In this document: in pieces, positions 4,155 through 63,655 of the stretch | How the letters are laid out: every line of letters starts with the position of its first letter | How positions within the stretch are numbered: the stretch's first letter is position 1 | Source: Mustelus asterias | Taxonomy: Eukaryota | Length of the DNA stretch: 64,000 nt | Assembly (NCBI RefSeq): GCF_964213995.1 | Contig: NC_135825.1 | Coordinates: 52,266,001-52,330,000, forward strand | Reading direction: 5' to 3' | Position numbers and translations under genes: made by a program | Notes under the pieces: generated by a model | What the model saw: the letters and a program-made list of their open reading frames with translations, nothing else | Told to the model about the DNA's origin: nothing | Database searches by the model: none

Positions 4155-6555
4155 TTTTTTATTTCAAAAATATACTTTATTCATAAATACTCTGAAATAA
4201 ACCATTGCAGAAACATTTCCAATAATTGTAAACAGAGCAAAATAATCAGTCATAATTACAATACGGTGCTCAGTTCCAAGACATTGCATTCATTACAGTT
4301 CAGTTCTTCAATAAACTATATACATTCATCACATTTCACTGTGTGCTGTTTTTACAGAGTTGCACACAGTTATGCAGCTGAGGGTTTTTTTTACAGTTAC
4401 TGGGCCCTTGCTCTGCCTTGGTTGAAAGGCTTCAAAAGGTGGCGCTGAGAGGCAGCAGTGGCCTTTCCCCATTGTGCCTTTGCAGTGGCTGCCCCGAGCT
4501 GGAGAGTGTCCCTCAGCACGTAGTTCTGGACCTTGGAATGTGCCAGTCGGCAACACTCGGTCGAGGACAAATCTTTGCACTGGAAGATCAGCAAGTTTCG
4601 GGCGGACCAAAGAGCATTCTTCACTGAGTTGATGACCCTCCAGCAGCAGTTGATATTTGTCTCGGTGTGCGTCCCTGGAAACAGCCCGTAGAGCACAGAG
4701 TCCTGCATCACCGAGCTGCTCAGGATGAACCTCGACAAATACCACTGCATCTCACTCCAGACCTTCTTTGCAAAGGCACATTCCACAAGGAGGTGTGCGA
4801 CCGTCTCATCACCCCCGCAGCCGCTTCGAGGGCAGTGTGCAATGGTGTTGAGACCTCGAGCGTGCATGAAGGATCTGATGGGAAGTGCCCTTCTCACCAC
4901 CAGCCAAGCCAGGTCTTGGTGCTTGTTTGAAAGTTCTGGTGATGAGGCATTCTGACAGATGATACTGACAGTCTGCTCAGGGAACCATCTGACAGGATCC
5001 ACCATCTCCTTTTCCCTCAGGCCCTCGATGACATTACGCACTGACCACTGCTTGATCGCCATGTGGTCAAAGGTGTGTTTCTGGAAACATTTCTCCACGA
5101 AGGACAGGTGCTGCGGTACGGTCCAACTACTTGGAGCGTTCCACGACAGGGAGGCCAGACCCGTCCTCCGCAACACTTGGGACAGGTAGAACCTCAAAAA
5201 GTAGTGGCACTTGGTGTTAGCGTACCGAGGATCTACACACAGCTTGATGCAGCCGCACACAAAGGTGGTATTGGGAACATTTTTCCTTCCATCCTCTATA
5301 GATTTATGCTTTGCTTCCCTCCAGACACGGTCCATCTTAGATCTCCAGATAAATTTGAAGTTGGCCTGGGTGACTGCCGCTGCGCAGGATTTGGAAATTG
5401 GCCAGACCTGCGCCACATACAATAAAACAGAGAGTACCTCACACCGGATGACCAAGTTTTTGAAAGTGATAGAGAGGGAGCATTGCTCCCACAAGCCCAA
5501 TTTCTGCCTTTGGCGATGCGCTCTTCCCAGTTTTTGGCATACGCGCCCACTGCTCCAAAGCATATCCCCAGCACCTTAAGATAGTCTGCCCTGACGGTGA
5601 AGGGGACAAAGGATCAGTCCACCCAGTTCCCGAAGAACATGGCTTCATTCGTGCCCCGGTTGACTTTGGCTCCTGAGGCCAGCTCGAACTGCTCACAGAC
5701 TTAGAGGAGCCTGCGAACAGATGACGGATCCGAGCAGAAGGCAGCCACATCATCCATGTACAGGGAAGTTTTGATCTGCCTGGGATGGTATCCCCTTTGA
5801 TGCCTGGGTCCTTTCTGATGGACTTGGCAAAGGGTTCAATGCAACACACAAAAAGGACAGAGGGCAGCCCTGCCTGACTCCAGACCTGATCTGAAACCTA
5901 TCTGATTCCCACCCATTGAGACTGCGCTACTGATATCTGTGTAGAGCAGTTGGATCCAATTGCAGATTCCCTCCCAAAAGCCCATTTTGGAGGGCACATC
6001 CATCATGTAGCTGTGCGATATTCTGTCAAACGCCTTCTACTGGTCTAGGCTGACAGGTGTCCACCTGCCTGTCCTGCATGTAGGCAATCATATCCCTGAG
6101 TAGTGCGAGGCTATCAGAGATCTTCCTCGCAGGTACAGCACAGGTTTGATCAGGATGGATCACCGACTCCAGAGCGGACTTGACCCAGTTGGTGATGACC
6201 TTGGCTAGAATTTTGTAATCCACATTCAACAGTGAAATGGGTCTCCAATTTCTAATTTCTTCCCTTCCCCCCTTCTGCTTGTAGATGAGGGTAATGATGC
6301 CTTTCCTCATGGATTCTGACATGCTGCCTTCCAGAAGCATACTCTCCTATACTTCCAGCAGGTCCGGGCCCGTCAAGTCCCACATCGCCGAGTAAACCTC
6401 AGCCGGTAAACTGTCGCTTCCGGGAGTTTTACCTTCTGAAAGGACTCAACGGCCTTTGTCAGCTCATCCAGAGATAACGGTCTGTCCAGGCTCTCCTGCT
6501 CGCCATTGTCTATAACCTCTGTGATAGACGACAGGAAAGACTGGGAGGCAAAGGA
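4155..6555 (-). mobile_element. 5'-truncated Tx1/L1-clade LINE, disrupted ORF2 (RT + zf-RVT)
   Basis: ORF 6026-6340 has WRPISLLNVDYKILAK..IHPDQT. ORF 4397-5563 has C-terminal CPRxxC..ETVAHLLVEC. A-rich 3' end with AATAAA near 4155-4190. Multiple frameshifts. Confidence 0.92.
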
Positions 6556-14950: not shown

Positions 14951-15472
14951 TTTCTGTACACTGAGGATTATTGGAGTGAGAAGCGCTTTCTCAGATTCTT
15001 TTACAATAAGGGAAAGTCGAATAAAACTTGAAGCAGAGGAAGGTATAGGCTGTGGGGAGGGAGCGTGGCAATGGGAGCAGTATTTAATTACTCTGTGAAA
15101 GAAGCAGCGCACTAATGAATGGCCTCCGACTGTGCTAAAGGTTGCTATGGTTTTGCAGGAGAAATGTGATCTTATGTTGCCAAGGACTCCAGAGAGAGCC
15201 TGGTGCCAAGACCGTGGTAGATCATACTTAGTGACACCTTGCGCCACCTTTTGGATCAAATTATTAACTGACATTAAAAAAAGATTAAATCCACTTCAGG
15301 TGTGCCAACAGTGGAGCTCCAGATGGCAGAGCTCTGCACTGGCACAATTCCTCCCCAATCTGTTTAATTCCTCCCTCGAGGAAGATAGACACAGCAAGTA
15401 AATGATCCAAACCGAAAGTACAGGGAAATTCCTTTTTGATTTGAGAGGGGAAAGTCAGTTCCTCCAAGTTCA

Positions 15473-16901
15473 ACAGACTGATGTTGAAAGCTAAAAGCCT
15501 GTTGGGCCACATTCCCCACAGAAAAGAACTGGCGCTGGATTTCTCCATGAGGCAGTAACTAAGCTGCTAACACCAACAAAGCCAAGATTCTGACTGGTGT
15601 AAAATAAATGCGCTAACCCGGGGTCCAGAATGCCACTTGGCACAGTGGGTAGCACTGCTGCCTCACAGCGCCAGGGACCCGGGTTCAATTCCCGGCTTGG
15701 GTCACTGTCTGTGTGGAGTCTGCATGTTCTCCCCGTGTCTGCGTGGGTTTCCTCCGGGTGCTCCGGTTTCCTCCCACACTCCAGAGATGTGCAGGTTGGG
15801 TCAATTGGCCATGCTAAATTGCTCCTTCATGTCCCAGGATGTGTAAATTGGGTGGATTGGCTATGGGGAATGTGTGGGGTTGTGGGAGATAGGGCAAAGG
15901 GAAGGACCTGGGTGGGTTGCTCTTTTGAAGAGTCGGTGCAGTCTCGATGGGCTGAAGAGCCTCCTTCTGCACAGTAGGGAGTTCTGTGGACCATAGAATC
16001 CAGGCTACGTTAGCTGTACCATTCGGCCTAGGCCAGATTTAAATAGTGGAGATTGAGTATCGAAGACATTTCTTGGGGATCCCATTGCAGGAACCTCCAC
16101 AGTGACGTTGGGTTTCTGTCCTACACAAGGGGTACAATGCAGCTACTGATTACCTGAGCCAGGGAGTCCTGCTCCTGAAGCTCAGTTGGAAGTCACGGGA
16201 GCAGTTGTTACCAGTGTATCCAGTGAGGTGACGCAGTGTAGGGTTGCTAACTATGATTAAATGTATTCCTGAAGGTTTCACCACATGCTTTACACCCGTG
16301 CTGCAGTCATTCATTGACCAACACGGCCATCTTTGTGATGCACAGCCTTCCGACGCCAATTGGAAAGCAAATTACCCAATTGGATGATGCTTGATGGTCA
16401 GCCAATCGGCCTCCACACCCCCCCTTTATACCTGGTAAAGAGAAATGTTCGAAGCCACATGTAGGTTAGGTGGATAGATGCTAAACTGTCTCTTAGTGCC
16501 CCAAGATGTGTGGGTTAGTGTGATTAGCGGGATAAATACCTGGGGTTACGGCAATAGAATGCTCTTTCAGAGGGTCGGTGCAGACTCGATGGGTTGAATG
16601 GCCTCCTGCACTGTAAGGATTCTATGACAGTGAATAAAGAAAAACAGCTATATTTTTTAATAACCCAATGATTTTTCTTTAAGATTGCATCTGGCAGATC
16701 GATCTTCAATCCCTGGAGAGTCCAGGCCAATCCTGGAGGGTTGGTAATCCTGGACAGCAGACGGACAGAAAATCTGAGGGAAGTCACAATGTTATCAGTG
16801 AATAACACTGGGTTTTTAAAAAAACTTGTTTTGGTTTCTACTTATATGCCTTGGAGGTGCATCCCTGAATTTAATTAACCCTGTTGATAACAGCTTCAGA
16901 T
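15473..16901 (+). repeat. Source copy of a ~1.43 kb long-range inverted duplication (partner 61230-62998)
   Basis: Reverse complement aligns end to end with 61230-62998. Near-identical ORFs 16150-16359/61775-61984 and 16524-16808/61323-61607. Confidence 0.95.
15637..15985 (+). mobile_element. HE1-like SINE within the duplicated segment
   Basis: Head, core and CR1-type tail; uninterrupted here, interrupted in the partner copy. Confidence 0.9.
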
Positions 16902-17749
16902 AGACTGTATGGCTGGTTGAGATTAACGTGATATCAGAGCTCCCAAATTTAATGAATTCTGTGATAGATATCTGTCTCAGTGTTTGGGTAGGAATGGAGG
17001 GCCGTTAACCTGTGCGTGGGACATACTTGGATTTATTGAAGGCATTCAGTGTCGGACCACATCTGAGGCTTTTATGGGAGATTAAACCTCGTGAAATTAA
17101 TTGTCAATTAGATTTAAGATTGGCCTGGCAATGGAATTGGTGGGGGGTAGCAGTGGGGGATGGGGTCCAGGATAAATGGACTATGTCCTGCAGGAGGTGC
17201 GGACACTGACCAGTGGGGACGTCATGGCTCTGTTCACATTCCGTCAGTGAGTTTGTCTGGGTAATAAATCTGACATCAGCTTTGGGAGCAGATAGTAAAG
17301 TGTAGACATCCCAAGTGGTTTCCTCCAGTGGAGCACTACAGAACTAAAATCTTATTTGCAGCACAGCAAGGGTACAGGCCCTGTGCCCTGGGAGGCTGCA
17401 TATGGAAACCTAATGTTTTACACATGGGAAGACATGTAACTGGAACAGGATCATGAACTATGAGCTGAATTGAGACTGTCTAAACTCATAGACAGAGCAA
17501 TCACCCAAGACACACAATGGGGATCTTCATATCCTTACTCTGCCAGTTCTGTTCTCCCTCTTCTTTCCCAATGGATTGTAAACGTTGTTTCACTGCCCAA
17601 TGGTGCACAGTGTGTACCATCGACAAAATACACTCCACCAATTCACCAATGTTCCTTTGACCAAACCCATGACCTTTACCACCTAAAAGGACAAGGGCAG
17701 CAGACACATGGAAACACCAATTCCCCTCCAAGTGACTCACTTGTTTATT

Positions 17750-35344: not shown

Positions 35345-35778
35345 GGGAAGATAGGTCTTATGAGGAAAGGTTGAGGGAGCTAGGGCTGTTCTCTCTGGAG
35401 CGGAGGAGGTTGAGGGGAGACTTAATAGAGGTTTATAAAATGATGAAGGGGATAGATAGAGTGAACGTTCAAAGACTATTTCCTCGGGTGGATGGAGCTA
35501 TTACAAGGGGGCATAACTATAGGGTTCGTGGTGGGAGATATGGGAAGGGTATCAGAGGTAGGTTCTTTACGCAGAGAGTGGTTGGGGTGTGGAATGGACT
35601 GCCTGCGGTGATAGTGGAGTCAGACACTTTAGGAACATTTAAGCGGTTATTGGATAGTGACATGGAGCACACCAGGATGATAGGGAGTGGGATAGCTTGA
35701 TCTTGGTTTCAGATAAAGCTCGGCACAACATCGTGGGCTGAAGGGCCTGTTCTGTGCTGTACTGTTCTATGTTCTATG
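35345..35778 (+). mobile_element. CR1 3' fragment
   Basis: SYEERLRELGLFSLERRRLRGDLIEVYK; (TGTTCTA)n tail. Confidence 0.9.
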
Positions 35779-36526: not shown

Positions 36527-38865
36527 TCCTTGTACAGTGTTAAAGGTGGTCGGGAGTAGATGGGGCGGCTGGGGGTGGGTTGGGGGGGAGGCCGCGGGGG
36601 GTGTTAGTGTTAGTGGTGAGTGAGGCTGTAGTCATTAGCATCAACTCAGAAAATAACCTTCATATAAACCTCAAAACAGACAACTATTGTGGGGAGAATA
36701 CTTAGGTGTGCTGGGATTGCTGCGGACAGTTAGTGGATGGACGGGAAACCTTTTTGATTTCGTTCAGGGAATTTGGGCATTCTTAGCAAGGCCAACGTTA
36801 ACACACCAGGATGGTAGGGAGTGGGATAGCTTGATCTTGGTTTCAGATGAAGGTCGGCACAACATCGTGGGCCGAAGGGCCTGTTCTGTGCTGTACTGTT
36901 CTATGTTCTATGTTGTTCTTAACTGTCCAACCCTGGCTGTCCATAAGAAGGTGATGGTGGTGGACCTTCTTCTTAAATCACCTGAATCTGTGTGGCGAAG
37001 GTGCTTTAACAATGTTGACAGTGGGGGAGTGCCAGCATTATGACCCAGCAACAATGAAATCGATTAGACCATGTTCATAGAGTGCTGTTATTGATGGCAG
37101 TGGATCTGACAGGCCGCTGGTTATGAGTGGAGTCCCTCAGACTGGGTCTGTCCAACGCTGAGCTAAAGAACAACTTGCATGGCAGCAGACAGAAATGTGG
37201 CCAAGAGGGTTGGGTTCAATGGGAGGCATATCGAGAATGGGCAAGCTGATTTAAATAAGAATGAGCCTGTGCTTCGTCACTTAATGTGAACAAATGCAAC
37301 GTCAGGAATGTGGAGTTCGGATACTTTGGGCAGGTCGATACTTGTTCAAACGAAATAGGTCAGGAAGAAGGGTTGGGAGTAGTAATTGATCACCCTTCAA
37401 ATTAAAGAAACCCACGCAGTGTGAGCTTGTTATAACGCATTGGGCTGCATTGCTATGACTGTTGTGTACAAAACAAAGAAAACTTGATGCATTTGGAGTG
37501 TTTTGTCTCTGCTTCAGAGGGCTGCAGGACGGCTAGATGTTGTCAGCGGGCTCCTCCTTGGGTTAAAGAATATCTCACTAAGAGGAAACCTGTGCCCCCA
37601 CCCCGAGCCCTTTGGGAGGCTCCCAGAACTCACTGGATGGTTCTGCCCCCCCCCCCCCCCCCTCCCCCCCCTCTCAACCTCCCCACTGTTGCCAGAATGC
37701 CAGGCATGGTGGAAAGGGGGCCTTAGTTGGTCGTCAGTTTGGAGTGGTATTTCTCAGGTGTAACTGCGATCTCCTGGAATCCATCTGATTACCTCAGACA
37801 CCGTTTTCCAGAATTTTAATTACTGAGGGGGCGGGGGGGTGGGGGGGTGAGGAGCGGGGAGGGTGGTGGGGGGGAGGGATGGGAGGGGTGGGCAGTAGGG
37901 AGTTTGGGACGGGGTACAGGGAATGGCGATGGCCATGTATGAGTTCACATTATTGAATGGGGAGAGCTGGATGGGCCTTATGATCTCCCTGTGAAACGTT
38001 CTCTGTCCAGAGATATAGCCTTGATCAGAAAGGAGTGTTCACATTTTTTTATTTAGCTTAACAGCCCACGGGGGAGAGAAAGAGAGAGAGAGGTGGGGTG
38101 GAAGTGGAGAGGAGTTTTAATTTTGGTACAAAATTATCTCAGCCAGAAGAGAGACACACGCTCAGGAATAAACCTCGGATAAGGTACAAGTGTTACGTAA
38201 GAAGCTATTACACGAGAGGTGAAAAGAATGAAGCACATTCTTCAGAGCATTAGTCACAATCAAATCAGATATGGTTTCCCAGAAATAAGGGTGGACAATC
38301 TCTTTCTCGTAAACCTTATAAACCGGTTTGGCCACTCTGATTTCTCAAAGCATGTCATTACTGAATTCTATTTTTTTAATTACAAGATGCATAAATGCCT
38401 TAAATCTCAGTATAATGCAGATTATTTACAATATTAGCGCACATCATTGTGCCTTCCGAGGTATTCTGATTTAGAGGCTTGAGAATCAATGATAGAGACT
38501 GGTTCCAACCCATGGACAATGGCCTCCTTCTCATTTCTGACACATTTTTATTGGTGATATCAAACACACTTGTTCCTGCAGTTGCCATCCATGTGCTGGA
38601 GTTAAGCCAACACCACGAAAATGCATTGATGACAGTCCTGATTATAGACAGCAGGTTCATTTAGTACGCATGCACTTGCGTATATCTTTGTAGAGTCAGT
38701 GTGCTTAGGGTATATCTCAGTCAGCCATTTGGACAGTGCCCCTTCACGGACATGACCACATGCACCTCCCTCCTCTTGCCCACTCCATCACCCCCCGCGG
38801 CCTCCCCCCCAACCCACCCCCAGCCACCCCATCTACTCCCGACCACCTTTAACACTGTACAAGGA
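36527..38865. repeat. 77-bp inverted repeat pair (36527-36603 / 38789-38865)
   Basis: TCCTTGTACAGTGTTAAAGGTGGTCGGGAGTAGATGGGG...GCCGCGGGGGGTG and its reverse complement, with one mismatch. Confidence 0.9.
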
Positions 38866-58085: not shown

Positions 58086-59599
58086 GTTGATATTGTGAAG
58101 TGGGTGCTTTTAACTTTGATTTTAAACATAGCACTTGATTACAGAAAGACTGTAGTCATACTCTGTATCTGCCAAACACTTGTTCGTCAGTACTACTTCT
58201 AAACAGGTTACAGCATAGGTATGATTCCAACCTCTCTCTCAAGTCTAACATAGGATGTCAGTGGTACATCATCATCTACCTCATACATTAGCATGCCTCA
58301 TCTGTTAACCCTTTATATTACACCACCTCAAACGAGCCTATCCTACTTTTAAACCACAACACCACAAAACTATTGCCGAAATCTTGCTGCCGTTTCCGCT
58401 GGTGGGATCTCACAGTCCCGCTGACGGCGCACCCCTGGTTAATGAAAGACTAATCCCAAATACTGAAGAAAATAGACCTTTGGATCCTGTGGGACAAAGA
58501 GAAATCAGAACCCTTTGAGGAACGTGTTGCTCCCTCAAGGGTTCTATGAAGAAGCTTCTTAAGAGGAATGATCTTCAACTTCAGGGAAGACTATCATAGC
58601 TGTATCAATGATGGCCATATCAATGACTGACAAAGCATTGAAGATTTGAGATTGCAATGAACTTAGGCAATGAAGGAAAAAGCAACTGACTTGCTCGAAG
58701 ACTGTCAAGAAAAGAAAGAGATAATTTCCCAATTACATTACGTTTCCTCCCACACGCCACAGATGTGGTTGATTGGCCCATGCTAAATTGCCTCTTAGTG
58801 TCAGGGGAATTAGCAGGGTGAATATGTGGGGCTACTGGGATAGGGCCTGGGTGGGATTGTTGTCGTTGAAGGCTTGATGGGTCAAATAGTTTCCTTTCGC
58901 ACTGTAGGCATTCTATAATTCTATGATTGGAGGTAGGCTGGGGGGAGGTAGAGAAATTGGGGAATGAGGTGGGCATGGAACCCAGAATTTCCTGGGTTAA
59001 AAATAAAAGGTTATTGTTACCTGTGCGTGCGTGAAGATGAAGCAAATGGAGACTGAGGGTTCATGTGTCATGTTTGGTCCATGATGTGAAACTATGAGCA
59101 CAACTCAAAGAGTGCAATATTTATTAATTAAATTAATTAAATTTATTAAGACGTCAAGTAATCAGATATCATTTGATTCAAACTTTGGAAAATATGTCTA
59201 ACCATAGTTAGTAATCTTAGAAAGAAATAGAATAAAGTTTGGGAATTTCTTCAAAGTTATTCCTTTTCCACTGTCTAAAGTTCAAAAACCAAAACCCTAT
59301 TTACAAGCCTAAGCTCGGTTTCCAATGCACTTTTGGCAAAGTTATAGTACAGGGAAGGGCGGGGGGAGGGGGGGGGGGCAGTAGGAGCAGATCCCAGGAA
59401 AATGAGAACAGGAAGTAGAAAACTTGCATGCCTGAGAAACAGATATTTATTGGCAAAGATGTACAAGGAAAATATATTCGTGTGGTTACTGATTATTCGC
59501 TAAATGTTTCCAGTCATTGTGAAGCTGTTGCCAAGTAATCTAATTTACGACAAGTGATTGTGTTCTGTGGCACTGCCACCGTGCTAATTAATAGATATC

Positions 59600-60440
59600 A
59601 GTTAGATCTAACAACTCAAAACTGGACATCCATGAGGAGCTGTGGGCAATCAGCAGCCGCAGAATTGTATACAGTCACAATCTGTAACTTATGACCCAGC
59701 ATATCCCCCACTCAACCGTTACCACCAAGCCAGGGAATCAACCCTGGTTCAATGGAGAGTGCAGGAGGGCATGCCAGGAGCAGCACCAGGCATACCTAAA
59801 AATGAGGTGTCAACCTGACGAAGCTACAGGACAACTTGCAAAATAGTGAAAGCAACAAGTGATAGACAGAGCTACGGAATCCCACCACCAACAGATCAGA
59901 TCTAAGCTCTGCAGTCCTTCGAACTCCAGTTGTGAATGGTGGTGGATAATTAAACAACTCATTGGAGGCTCCACAAATATCCGCATTCTCAACGATGGAG
60001 GAGCCCAGCCCATCAGTGCAAAAGATAAGGTGGAAGCATTCGCAGTAATCTTCGGCCAGAAGTGCCAAGAAGTGATCCAGCTCAGCCTCACCTGGAGGTG
60101 TCAGCATCGCAGTTGCAAATCTTCGGCCAATTATATTCACTCCAAGTGATATCAGGTAATGGTTAAATGCACCAGACACTGCAAAGGCCATGGGCCCTGA
60201 CAATATTCCAGCAATAGTACTGGAGATTTGTGCTCCAGAACTTGCTGCGTCCCCCCAGCCAAGTTGTCCCAGTGCAGCTACATCACTTGTATCTACCTGG
60301 CAATATGGAAAATTGCCCTATTTGTACGCAAAAAGGACAAATCCAACCCTGCCAGTTACCACCTCTTCAGTCTACTCCCGATCATCGTTAAAGTGATGGA
60401 AGGGGTCATCAACAGTGCTATCAAGCAGCACTTACACAGC
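59600..60440 (+). mobile_element. Old CR1/L2-group LINE ORF2, upstream part
   Basis: KAMGPDNIPAIVLEICAPEL and KSNPASYH.FSLLPIIVKVMEGVIN. Confidence 0.8.
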
Positions 60441-60450
60441 GTCACACGTT

Positions 60451-61228
60451 CATAGAACATAGAACATTACAGCGCAGTACAGGCCCTTCAGCCCTCGATG
60501 TTGCGCCGACCAGTGAAACCAATCTAAAGCCCATCTAACCTACACTATTCCAATATCATCCATATGTTTATCCAATGACCATTTAAATGCCCTTAATGTT
60601 GGCGAGTCCACTACTGCTGCAGGCAGGGCATTCCACGCCCTTACCACTCTCTGAGTGAAGAACCTACCTCTGACATCTGTCCTATATCTATCACCCCTCA
60701 ATTTAATGCTATGTCCCCTCGTGCTAGCCATCACCATCCGAGGAAAAAGGCTCTCACTATCCACCCTATCTAATCCTCTGATCATCTTGTATGCCTCTAT
60801 TCAGTCGCCTCTGAACCTTCTTCTCTCTAACGAAAACAACCTCAAGTCCCTCAGCCTTTCCTCATAAGACCTTCCCACCATACCAGACAACATCCTAGTA
60901 AATCTCCTCTGCACCCTTTCCAATGCATCCACATCCTTCCTATAATGCGGTGACCAGAACTGTACGCAATACTCCAAGTGCGGCCGCACCAGAGTTTTGT
61001 ACAGCTGGAACATGACCTCCTGGCTCCGAAACTCAATCCCTCTACCAATAAAAGCTAACACTCCGTACGTCTTCTTAACAACCCTATCAACCTGGATGCC
61101 AACTTTCAGGGATCTATGCACATGGACACCGAGATCTCTCTGTTCATCCACACTACCAAGTATCTTACCATTAGCCCAGTACTCTGTAATCCTGTTACTC
61201 CTTCCGAAGTGAATCACCTCACACTTTT
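60451..61228 (-). mobile_element. 5'-truncated CR1 LINE
   Basis: ORFs 60801-61217 and 60540-60785; (ATGTTCT) tail at 60451. Confidence 0.92.
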
Positions 61229-62473
61229 AATCTGAAGCTGTTATCAACAGGGTTAATTAAATTCAGGGATGCACCTCCAGGGCATATAAGTACAAACCAA
61301 AACAAGTTTTTTTTAAAACCCAGTGTTATTCACTGATAACATTGTGACTTCCCTCAGATTTTCTGTCCGTCTGCTGTCCAGGATTACCAACCCTCCAGGA
61401 TTGGCCTGGACTCTCCAGGGATTGAAGATCAATCTGCCAGATGCAATCTTAAAGAAAAATCATTGGGTTATTAAAAAATATAGCTGTTTTTCTTTATTTA
61501 CTGTCATAGAATCCTTACAGTGCAGGAGGCCATTCAACCCATCGAGTCTGCACCGACCCTCTGAAAGAGCATTCTGTTGCCGTAACCCCAGGTATTTATC
61601 CCGCTAATCACACTAACCCACACATCTTGGGACACTAAGAGACAATTTAGCATCTATCCACCTAACCTACACGTGGCTATGAACATTTCTCTTTACCAGG
61701 TATAAAGGGGGGGGGGGGCGGAGGCTGATTGGCTGACAGTCAAGCATCATTCAATTGGGTAATTTGCTTTCCAATTGGCGTCGGAAGGCTGTGCGTCACA
61801 AAGATGGCCGTGTTGGTCAATGAATGACCGCAGCACGGGTGTAAAGCATGTGGTGAAACCTTCAGCAATACATTTAATCATAGTTAGCAACCCTACACTG
61901 CGTCACCTCACTGGATACACTGGTAACAACTGCTCCCGTGACTTCCAACTGAGCTTCAGGAGCAGGACTCCCTGGCTCAGGTAATCAGTAGCTGCATTGT
62001 ACCCCTTGTGTAGGACAGAAACCCAACCTCACTGTGGAGGTTGCTGCAATGGGATCCCCAAGAAATGTCTTCGATACTCAATCTCCACTATTTAAATCTG
62101 GCCTAGGCCGAATGGTACAGCTAACGTAGCCTGGATTCTATGGTCCACAGAACTCCCTACTGTGCAGAAGGAGGCTCTTCAGCCCATCGAGACTGCACCG
62201 ACTCTTCAAAAGAGCAACCCACCCAGGTCCTTCCCTTTGCCCTATCTCCCACAACCCCACACATTCCCCATAGCCAATCCACCCAATTTACACATCCTGG
62301 GACATGAAGGAGCAATTTAGCATGGCCAATTGACCCAACCTGCACATCTCTGGAGTGTGGGAGGAAACCAGAGCACCCAGAGGAAACCCACGCAGACACG
62401 GGGAGAACGTGCAGACTCCATGCAGACAGTGACCCGAGCCGGGAACCGAACCCGGGTCCCTGGCGCTGTGAGG

Positions 62474-62810
62474 TGTTGGATTTATGTCACATTATCAGTA
62501 ACCCCCACAGCTTGCCTCCTGGGCTTGCAGAATCTCACGAGCTGTTCTGTCTGGAGACAATACACATCTCTTTAACCTGTGTTTAATGTTCCCTCTACCC
62601 ACATTGTCTGTACCTTTAAGACCTGGCTGGTTGTAGGAATTCGCACTCTAATCAGTATTCTGTAACTTGATTTTGTGTCTCTGTGCACTGTTTGAGAGCA
62701 CATTTCCACTCCATCTGACGAAGAAGCAGCGCTCCGAAAGCTAATGGTATTTGCTACCAAATAAACCTGTTGGACTTTAACCTGGTGTTGTGAGACTTCT
62801 TGCTGTGAGT
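62474..62810 (+). mobile_element. Penelope-like non-coding insertion, same family as 19467-19863
   Basis: Absent from the partner copy; flanked by a GCTGTGAG duplication (62465-62472, 62802-62809). Confidence 0.85.
62711..62747 (+). ncRNA. Minimal type I hammerhead ribozyme motif
   Basis: CCAT-CTGACGA-A-GAAGC-AGC-GCTCC-GAAA-GCT-A-ATGG, with one mismatch in stem II. Confidence 0.7.
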
Positions 62811-62999
62811 CAGCAGTGCTACCCACTGTGCCATGTGGCATTCTGGCCCCCGGGTTAGCGCATTTATTTTACACCAGTCAGAATCTTGGCTTTGTTGGTG
62901 TTGGCAGCTTAGTTACTGCCTCATGGAGAAATCCAGCGCCAGTTCTTTTCTGTGGGGAATGTGGCCCAACAGGCTTTTAGCTTTCAACATCAGTCTGTC

Positions 63000-63655
63000 T
63001 TCACTTTGTGTTCTGCCAGAGTCGCTCACCATCTGACCTCATTACAGCCTTGGGTCAAACATAGACAAAAAGCTGCACTCCAGAGGTGAGATGAGCATGA
63101 CTCTTCTTGGCATTGAGGCCTCACTTAGCCAATTATGGCATCAAAGAGCCCTGGCCAAACTTGAATCAATGGGAATCAGGCGCGAAACCCTTCGCTGGCT
63201 GGAGTCACACCTGGCACTTAGGAGGATGGTTGTGGTGGTTGAAGGTCGATAATCTCAGCTCCAGGACATCACTGCAGGAGTTCCTCAGGGTTAGTGTCCT
63301 CGCCCCAACCGTCTTCAGCTGCTTCATCAATGACCTTCCTTCCATTACAAGGTCAGAAGTGGTGATGTTCGCAGATAATTGCACAATGTTCAGCACCATT
63401 CACAACTCCTCAGATACTGAAGCAGCCCATGTCCAAATGCAGCAAGGCTTGGTCAATATCTAGGGTTGGGTTGACATGTGGCGAGTAACATTTGCACCAC
63501 ACAGTGCCAGGCAATGACCATCACCAACAAGAGGCAATGCAATGGCATTATTACTAAATACCCACTATCAACATCCTGGGGTTACAATCGACCAGAAACT
63601 GAATGGACTCGCCATATAAATACTGTGACTACAAAGTGGGTTAAAAGCTGTGAAT
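63000..63655 (+). mobile_element. Old CR1/L2-group LINE ORF2, downstream continuation of 59600-60440
   Basis: RT motifs GVPQG.SVLAPTVFSCFINDL and MFADN. Confidence 0.8.

Follow-up and report, generated by a model that had tools for sequence, protein, structure and literature searches.

A truncated CR1 element and an inverted copy of a segment 44 kb away: a probable single insertion in the genome of Mustelus asterias

Architecture of the locus

The window analysed here is a stretch of 64,000 nucleotides from the 3.68-Gb genome of Mustelus asterias (C25:52,266,001-52,330,000). It contains an old LINE on the plus strand whose left half (59620-60452) is about 15% divergent from family copies and whose right half (63000-63655) is collinear with it. 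Between the halves lie a 5'-truncated young CR1 on the minus strand (60453-61228) and an inverted copy, also on the minus strand (61230-62998), of a donor segment located 44.3 kb away on the plus strand (15473-16901).

The CR1 comprises the C-terminus of ORF2, the 3' end and a tail of heptamer repeats beginning at 60451-60453, and differs by 2.3-3.2% from its 29 best family copies, all 29 of which extend beyond the point (61228) at which it stops. The open reading frames at 60801-61226 and 60540-60800 match the C-terminus of one family copy (L085) with reverse transcriptase (RT) motifs, and the truncation falls just after the RT domain seen in that copy. The ORF2 C-terminus carries a motif that we take to be of the CR1 type. 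The short-repeat 3' tail without poly(A), the 5' truncation and the short target duplications seen in the family are features of CR1 elements, as is an ORF2 in which the RT domain runs into a CR1-type C-terminus, the latter being observed via L085. One source (PMC13343379) gives an esterase ORF1 and RT placement as features of the canonical vertebrate CR1 clade. The ORF pieces of the CR1 and of the host LINE fall in different regions of ORF2, and comparing them was uninformative.

Self-BLAST and global alignment place 15473-16901 (plus) against 62998-61230 (minus) with 33 substitutions over 1,429 columns (2.3%, 95% CI 1.6-3.2). No other pair in the window equals it in length or identity, and self-BLAST recovers it in two pieces. 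Fourteen of the substitutions fall in CpG-class sites, leaving 19 in 1,355 other sites (1.4%), and CpG decay is roughly equal in donor and copy. An earlier, sequence-only reading had described 61230-62998 as a reverse complement of the donor with a few percent of differences, abutting the CR1 truncation with about 1 bp between them. The measured divergence and end coordinates agree with this, the CR1 ending at 61228, a single A occupying 61229 and the copy starting at 61230. The length of 1.43 kb given there for the copy is that of the donor; the copy itself spans 1,769 bp, the excess being a 337-bp insert and a 3-bp indel. The insert and the probable target duplication considered below had both been overlooked.

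The insert (62474-62810, plus strand) derives from a high-copy repeat, of which it is a truncated fragment with 96-98% identity to many genomic copies, and is flanked by a 9-bp target duplication with 8 of 9 positions matching (62465-62473 and 62802-62810) that is in part common with the end of the repeat. Given that the donor holds a single copy of this target, the insertion most simply occurred after the duplication. The insert departs from the repeat at 8 of 334 sites, which is slightly high for the age of the copy (p=0.07), with 5 of the 8 departures common to other copies of the repeat. On the basis of a hammerhead-like motif it may be Penelope-like, such elements having RT and GIY-YIG domains and hammerhead-bearing pseudo-LTRs; a search of the insert against Rfam gave no match, and its fold z-score was 0.04.

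The donor segment consists of non-repeat DNA, two SINEs and other small old repeats, with no adjoining CR1. In genome searches with its parts, in each of which the best 40 candidates were scored, donor and copy were the sole matches above 96% for the non-repeat parts. The segment is therefore no dispersed repeat, despite the SINEs and old small repeats within it, which answers the concern, raised by the sequence-only reading itself, that it might be a high-copy one. As to the direction of copying, an old dispersed relative of the donor's right edge aligns through 16901 as far as 16950, which identifies the donor as the original; the copy interrupts a LINE. Donor and copy are identical over a 326-bp tract (15765-16090 on the plus strand, with its counterpart at 62044-62369), a run that was spotted post hoc and exceeds expectation (p=0.006 by sites with CpG stratification; p=0.02 with adjacent differences merged). 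This hints at a possible later gene conversion between the two.

Junctions and target site

Both copy junctions, as read from the assembly sequence, carry one extra base, and the junction alignment revealed no microhomology with the donor at either. The extra A at 61229 is either untemplated or an ancestral donor base, the latter being conceivable since the old relative of the donor's right edge has T at the corresponding position; an untemplated origin is more likely. The extra C at 62999 is either untemplated as well or represents a fifth base of the target duplication that has since mutated.

The match of the host LINE to its family ends at 60440 and resumes at 63000-63002, leaving a gap of 20-22 nt in most of the 23 family copies in which both sides are present; the element is about 15-18% divergent from its family, and this copy carries several other deletions. 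The intervening bases 60441-60452 are probably degenerate host sequence ending in TTCA (60449-60452), and the right half of the LINE opens with the same four bases (63000-63003). A 4-bp TTCA target duplication probably encloses the whole cassette of CR1 and copy, although CA is common with the CR1 tail and only TT is independent of it, and although on this interpretation about 11 bp immediately upstream must have been deleted earlier. That part of 60441-60452 may be host-derived is moderately supported: in an anchored test of this post hoc pattern, with the expectation taken from the right side and the family sequence, bases 60445-60450 fit the expected host sequence at 5 of 6 positions. Such a fit occurs at 0.8% of window positions, and at 2.4% if one base of slack is allowed. 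When the alignment was left unanchored, a host origin was not supported, 75% of random 12-mers scoring equally well; with one mismatch allowed, 60442-60451 matches nowhere else in the window. Otherwise, 20 bp of the target would have been lost and 10 filler bases gained.

Of 21 copies of the CR1 family whose 5' end is visible, 10 have target duplications of at least 4 bp, compared with 15% of swapped controls, and another CR1 shows a clean 5-bp duplication. The CR1 of this locus has no target duplication of its own, the sequence from 61229 onward not repeating the left flank. Of the earlier proposal that CR1 and copy split one older LINE with a short stretch missing, the split is borne out by the collinear halves, and the plain loss gives way to a probable host remnant ending in TTCA.

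Ages of the two components

Of 776 sites in the CR1, 11 (1.4%) depart from the majority of its family, and the per-copy divergence of the duplication is about 1.15% (33/2858 sites). The comparison of these ages, which the sequence-only reading had proposed, finds them matched (Fisher p=0.58, a test of low power), and this fits a common age for CR1 and copy. The left flank (58900-60490) was compared in Logan contigs of 4 of 23 runs. Its orthologous divergence is 3.5% in relative B (26/734), 7.3% in relative D (61/836) and 8.1% in relative E (60/738), and the contigs of run X1, possibly the assembly's own sample, show no differences over three left-flank pieces. Set against the divergence of the copy, these values place the event after the splits from D and E, and perhaps also after that from B (Fisher p=0.12). 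With the mutation rate given in an epaulette-shark study (7e-10 per generation, 95% CI 1.4-14.1e-10; PMC10587355), a divergence of 0.7-1.15% per copy corresponds to the order of ten million generations, a loose figure, the rate being that of another species.

Similar arrangements in the surrounding region

A region of 1.6 Mb round the window was subjected to all-against-all BLAST, with 193 kb of segmental duplications masked and 1.47 Mb surveyed. It contains 273 tail-anchored elements with 170 truncated 5' ends (105 young), a few of the rows being SINEs. Of the 169 ends tested, 99 have repeat flanks and were not judgeable; among the other 70, 63 have no match and 7 have matches. Two of these rows belong to a second event; the remaining five are this locus, a tandem repeat, an LTR, a low-copy repeat and a short duplicated stretch of CR1 sequence. 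There are accordingly two events in 70 testable ends, one of them unascertained, with an unascertained rate of 1/69 (95% CI 0.04-7.8%). A looser pass from the side of the duplications, over 68 directed pairs, yielded no third case, and none of 21 further CR1 5' flanks has a templated copy inside its own 3.8-kb locus, two having repeat matches only. The rows rejected comprise LTR pairs, tandem repeats, a duplicate of which one copy holds a plain CR1 insertion, and an inversion-type pair at 51.65 Mb. The scan for CR1 5' ends fused to local sequence that the sequence-only reading had suggested thus produced a second case in the 1.47 Mb and nothing in the further family loci.

In the second case (C25:52,944,150-52,945,032; L206:4150-5032), a CR1 of 534 bp from a different family (97%) is followed by four extra bases and then by a copy of 346 bp (98%). 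The whole lies within one SINE, without host loss and with 2 nt of microhomology at the host-copy end, at the place where a fold-back from the reciprocal end would prime. The copied segment is a member of an old repeat family, and two candidate donors are equally close to it, one inverted at 1 kb and one direct at 410 kb; both circumstances count against the explanation preferred below. Its anatomical match to the present locus suggests that CR1-coupled copying may recur in this genome. L206:5841-6412 and L125:4385-4954 are old repeat paralogues 410 kb apart, near-identical over about 570 bp and bearing a GC-box/TATA-like motif, through conversion or duplication.

Other duplications are also present in this region. 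Direct segmental duplications at C25:51.90-51.99 Mb and 52.05-52.13 Mb, with a spacing of 35-60 kb, share 93-99.8% identity; those that are almost identical may be of recent origin or may be haplotype duplicates. About ten inverted low-copy pairs of 60-800 bp, 0.3-5 kb apart, occur in the 1.47 Mb without a young LINE end, and repair-type inverted copies seem common there. Within the window itself there is a 77-bp inverted two-copy pair (36527-36603 and 38789-38865; 98.7%) and, in direct orientation, a 111-bp copy of the 3' end of a CR1 (35668-35778 and 36802-36912; 96.4%), the members of each pair lying within 3 kb of one another.

A single insertion

The matched ages, the two-copy nature of the segment, the 1-nt junction, the probable enclosing TTCA duplication and the second case together support the earlier claim of one CR1-associated event, and we consider it very probable that CR1 and inverted copy entered as one insertion. 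For a given duplication, the chance that a young 5'-truncated end lies at most 5 bp from either of its ends is about 0.0016, a figure that is optimistic given that the window was selected for the adjacency of CR1 and copy. Two independent events, a repair-type inverted duplication and a CR1 of similar age at its edge, or the same in reverse order, are improbable. They would be in keeping with the frequency of LINE-free local low-copy pairs, most of the 29 pair rows having no young LINE 5' end, as well as with the choice of the window for adjacency and a target duplication that is not firm. They would, however, require the above coincidence for this duplication, and are further opposed by the lack of a separate target duplication round the CR1 alone, the matched ages and the independent second case.

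A staggered-break inversion of the 44 kb, or an artefact of assembly, is highly improbable. A pair resembling inversion breakpoints does exist in the region: at C25:51,648,552-51,650,643 (L243:2552-4643) a 540-bp inverted pair, 99.3% identical, is associated with an old CR1 that appears split into opposite orientations, and looks like a small staggered-break inversion. At the present locus, by contrast, the two halves of the host LINE are collinear and share one orientation instead of opposing each other. Mis-assembly is likewise at odds with a divergence of 2.3%, symmetric CpG decay and a private insert bounded by a target duplication, and also with the run X1 contigs, which match three left-flank pieces without differences, though possibly deriving from the assembly's own sample.

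The same order of parts would be expected if a CR1 had formerly stood at 16902, its read-through RNA had been retrotransposed and the source allele had been lost, and 5' transductions by L1 are known (PMC12350158). This history is scarcely credible here, given that neither a CR1 nor a scar is present at the donor edge, that the source element should persist on the same haplotype, and that a free RNA would have no reason to land 44 kb off in a 3.68-Gb genome.

Origin of the copied segment

The explanation to which we give about even credence is a single CR1-coupled insertion whose open end copied nearby chromosomal DNA before joining. The CR1 endonuclease would have nicked the top strand at TTCA, with CA annealing to the tail, and reverse transcription would have halted after about 778 nt. 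The free 3' end, either of the cDNA or the reciprocal one, would then have engaged the donor in nearby chromatin, where either ORF2p or a repair polymerase of the host would have extended it over 1.43 kb of DNA template; as a variant of this step, a loose donor fragment could have been ligated in. Joining of the ends without microhomology would have left one extra base per junction and a short target duplication. Afterwards the 337-bp repeat would have landed in the copy, and donor and copy may have exchanged 326 bp. Template, enzyme and priming end are proposals in this scheme, built on an anatomy, copy number, direction and matched ages that are directly observed.

With the CR1 on the minus strand, the plus strand corresponds to first-strand cDNA, and reads as tail, CR1 body and complement of the donor plus strand from 16901 to 15473. 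Three templates would have the required polarity, namely a nascent plus-strand RNA, the DNA strand displaced in an R-loop or bubble, and the top strand of a duplex that has been resected or invaded. Were the bottom strand extended from the reciprocal end, the product would be identical, and sequence by itself would not separate these options. Orientation cannot decide between RNA and DNA, since the displaced DNA strand of an R-loop shares the polarity of the RNA.

The sequence-only reading had offered a switch of the RT to a local nascent RNA. In this version, which we regard as rather unlikely, the CR1 RT would have jumped to the 3' end of a chromatin-held plus-strand RNA over 15473-16901 and copied it to its 5' end. 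The orientation of copy and CR1 is as this requires. A reverse-transcribed cap would give a G at the sense 5' end, and the extra base at 62999 is indeed a G in that sense, with a chance expectation of 1 in 4; this G and an initiator-like motif at 15456 were rejected as too weak. In the second case, a TATA-like motif on the strand that this needs stands immediately upstream of the near donor. One extra base without microhomology at both junctions is as expected of non-templated addition and template jumping, which PMC10830420 reports for L1 ORF2p, and nine L1 insertions made from two RNAs are given in PMC11702581.

Positive support for an RNA template did not emerge. Neither a host exon nor an unmasked CpG island was found in the window, as judged from the 150 longest of 480 ORFs and the splice-site candidates listed. 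The copy is unspliced and without poly(A), it begins 165 bp before the SINE head rather than at it, and there is no excess of editing (A>G 4 versus T>C 8). Pfam searches with the 150 longest of the 480 low-repeat window ORFs returned retroelement domains and two sub-threshold hits only, and a rough scan of the window for splice sites gave 71 candidates, of which the 40 listed are unconvincing. An Rfam search found no match in 60000-63500. With the 150 longest of 606 flank ORFs, Pfam searches returned only retroviral and actinoporin-like domains, at least 70 kb away.

Several other elements were noted in the window and its surroundings. A minus-strand LINE at 4400-6346 of the window, presumably of the L1/Tx1 type, has RT and zf-RVT hits and an open frame of 392 codons. 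At C25:52.126-52.136 Mb (L046:358-9961), an endogenous retrovirus-like element lies between 608-bp direct repeats that are 99.7% alike; its frames encode a zinc knuckle protein of 506 aa, a protease-RT-RNase H-integrase protein of 1,204 aa and a third product of 758 aa without a Pfam match, and further retroviral fragments occur in L049 and L051. ORFs at L048:3390-3821 and L054:947-1414 match the actinoporin-like family PF06369 (E 1e-9 and 5e-5); lying 70-120 kb upstream of the window, they are the closest sequence found that resembles a host gene.

A DNA template is favoured over RNA in view of the lack of a gene or transcript landmark, the proximity of the donor, which is natural for DNA, the L1 cases that have been read as DNA-templated, and the microhomology of the second case. 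The earlier suggestion that repair of the 5' junction copied nearby DNA is, on locality and the missing hallmarks of a transcript, at least as good as the RNA switch, yet it lacks microhomology. Strand-invasion repair usually leaves some, and its absence at this locus therefore counts against DNA copying. So does the extra base at both junctions, which fits non-templated addition by an RT jumping on either type of template. Points against the explanation as a whole are the much smaller size and distance typical of reported L1 templated insertions and the 337-bp insert, which if anything looks older than the copy that contains it (8/334, p=0.07). The absent microhomology and single extra bases keep an RT jump alive; PMC10830420 has L1 ORF2p copying DNA and RNA about equally and jumping between templates. 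As regards CR1-coupled copying of nearby DNA, the non-element segment found here is genomic, colinear and unspliced and sits at the 5' junction of a LINE, as in LINE templated insertions.

Relationship to known systems

Templated insertions of L1 are reported, in the parts of the sources available, as 22 DNA-templated cases typically of less than 250 bp and copied from at most 15 bp from the site (bioRxiv 10.1101/2024.08.27.596794) and as 3 further cases (PMC11702581). The present locus resembles them, so far as they are described there, in that a truncated LINE carries at its 5' junction a genomic segment copied locally and without splicing, the two having most likely gone in together. It differs in involving the CR1 clade, in being inherited rather than somatic or from cultured cells, and in its dimensions, with 1,429 bp drawn from 44.3 kb away compared with typically less than 250 bp from within 15 bp, which sets it outside the class seen in tumours. 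Integrants of the zebrafish elements ZfL2-1 and ZfL2-2 have extra 5' nucleotides templated from flanking genomic or LINE DNA, according to PMC4760211. They share with this locus a CR1-group LINE whose 5' junction is filled by templated sequence, but their template, as described there, flanks the junction, whereas here a kilobase segment came from a distant local site without microhomology.

The 5' transductions of L1 and SVA, as covered in PMC12350158, similarly place unique sequence 5' of the element, but no source element stands beside the donor here. In the order of foreign sense sequence followed by LINE 3' end and tail, and in the extra base at the switch, the locus is akin to two-template retro-chimeras as presented in PMC11702581 and PMC10830420. 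It departs from these in that its 5' part is without an Rfam match or transcript landmark and comes from the same neighbourhood. Overall, it is neither a 5' transduction nor an inversion scar, and would seem to act like an L1 templated insertion of another element, size and distance. Two-template retro-chimeras of this kind include those of the U6-L1 type. A literature search found no report of such a chimera for CR1 or for sharks, most subscription papers lying outside its coverage.

Implications

Donor and copy constitute a 1.43-kb inverted repeat pair 44.3 kb apart. The long inverted pair that underlies the earlier suggestion of a promoted inversion is confirmed, but no 44-kb inversion stands in the assembly, given that the host LINE halves are collinear. 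Were both members to lie in one transcript, they might form dsRNA, as also suggested earlier. The locus shows no sign of function.

A broader possibility, which we hold to be doubtful, is that in the germline of this shark-like genome CR1 retrotransposition routinely drives local duplications of kilobase scale that are often inverted, with about 1-2% of insertions capturing a regional segment as the RT jumps to nascent RNA or to the DNA of an R-loop tens of kilobases off. If this were true, the genome would hold thousands of fossil records of germline chromatin contacts, and the inverted repeats so seeded would later recombine. Taken together, the capture of 1.43 kb from 44 kb away and the second case within 620 kb suggest that genomes rich in CR1 have a source of local duplications and inverted repeats that has so far gone uncounted. 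If the region is typical, with 170 truncated tail-anchored copies (some of them SINEs) in 1.47 Mb, there would be roughly hundreds or tens of thousands of such events genome-wide. A genome-wide set of these events would test whether the 5' joining of non-LTR elements uses nearby DNA or nascent RNA.
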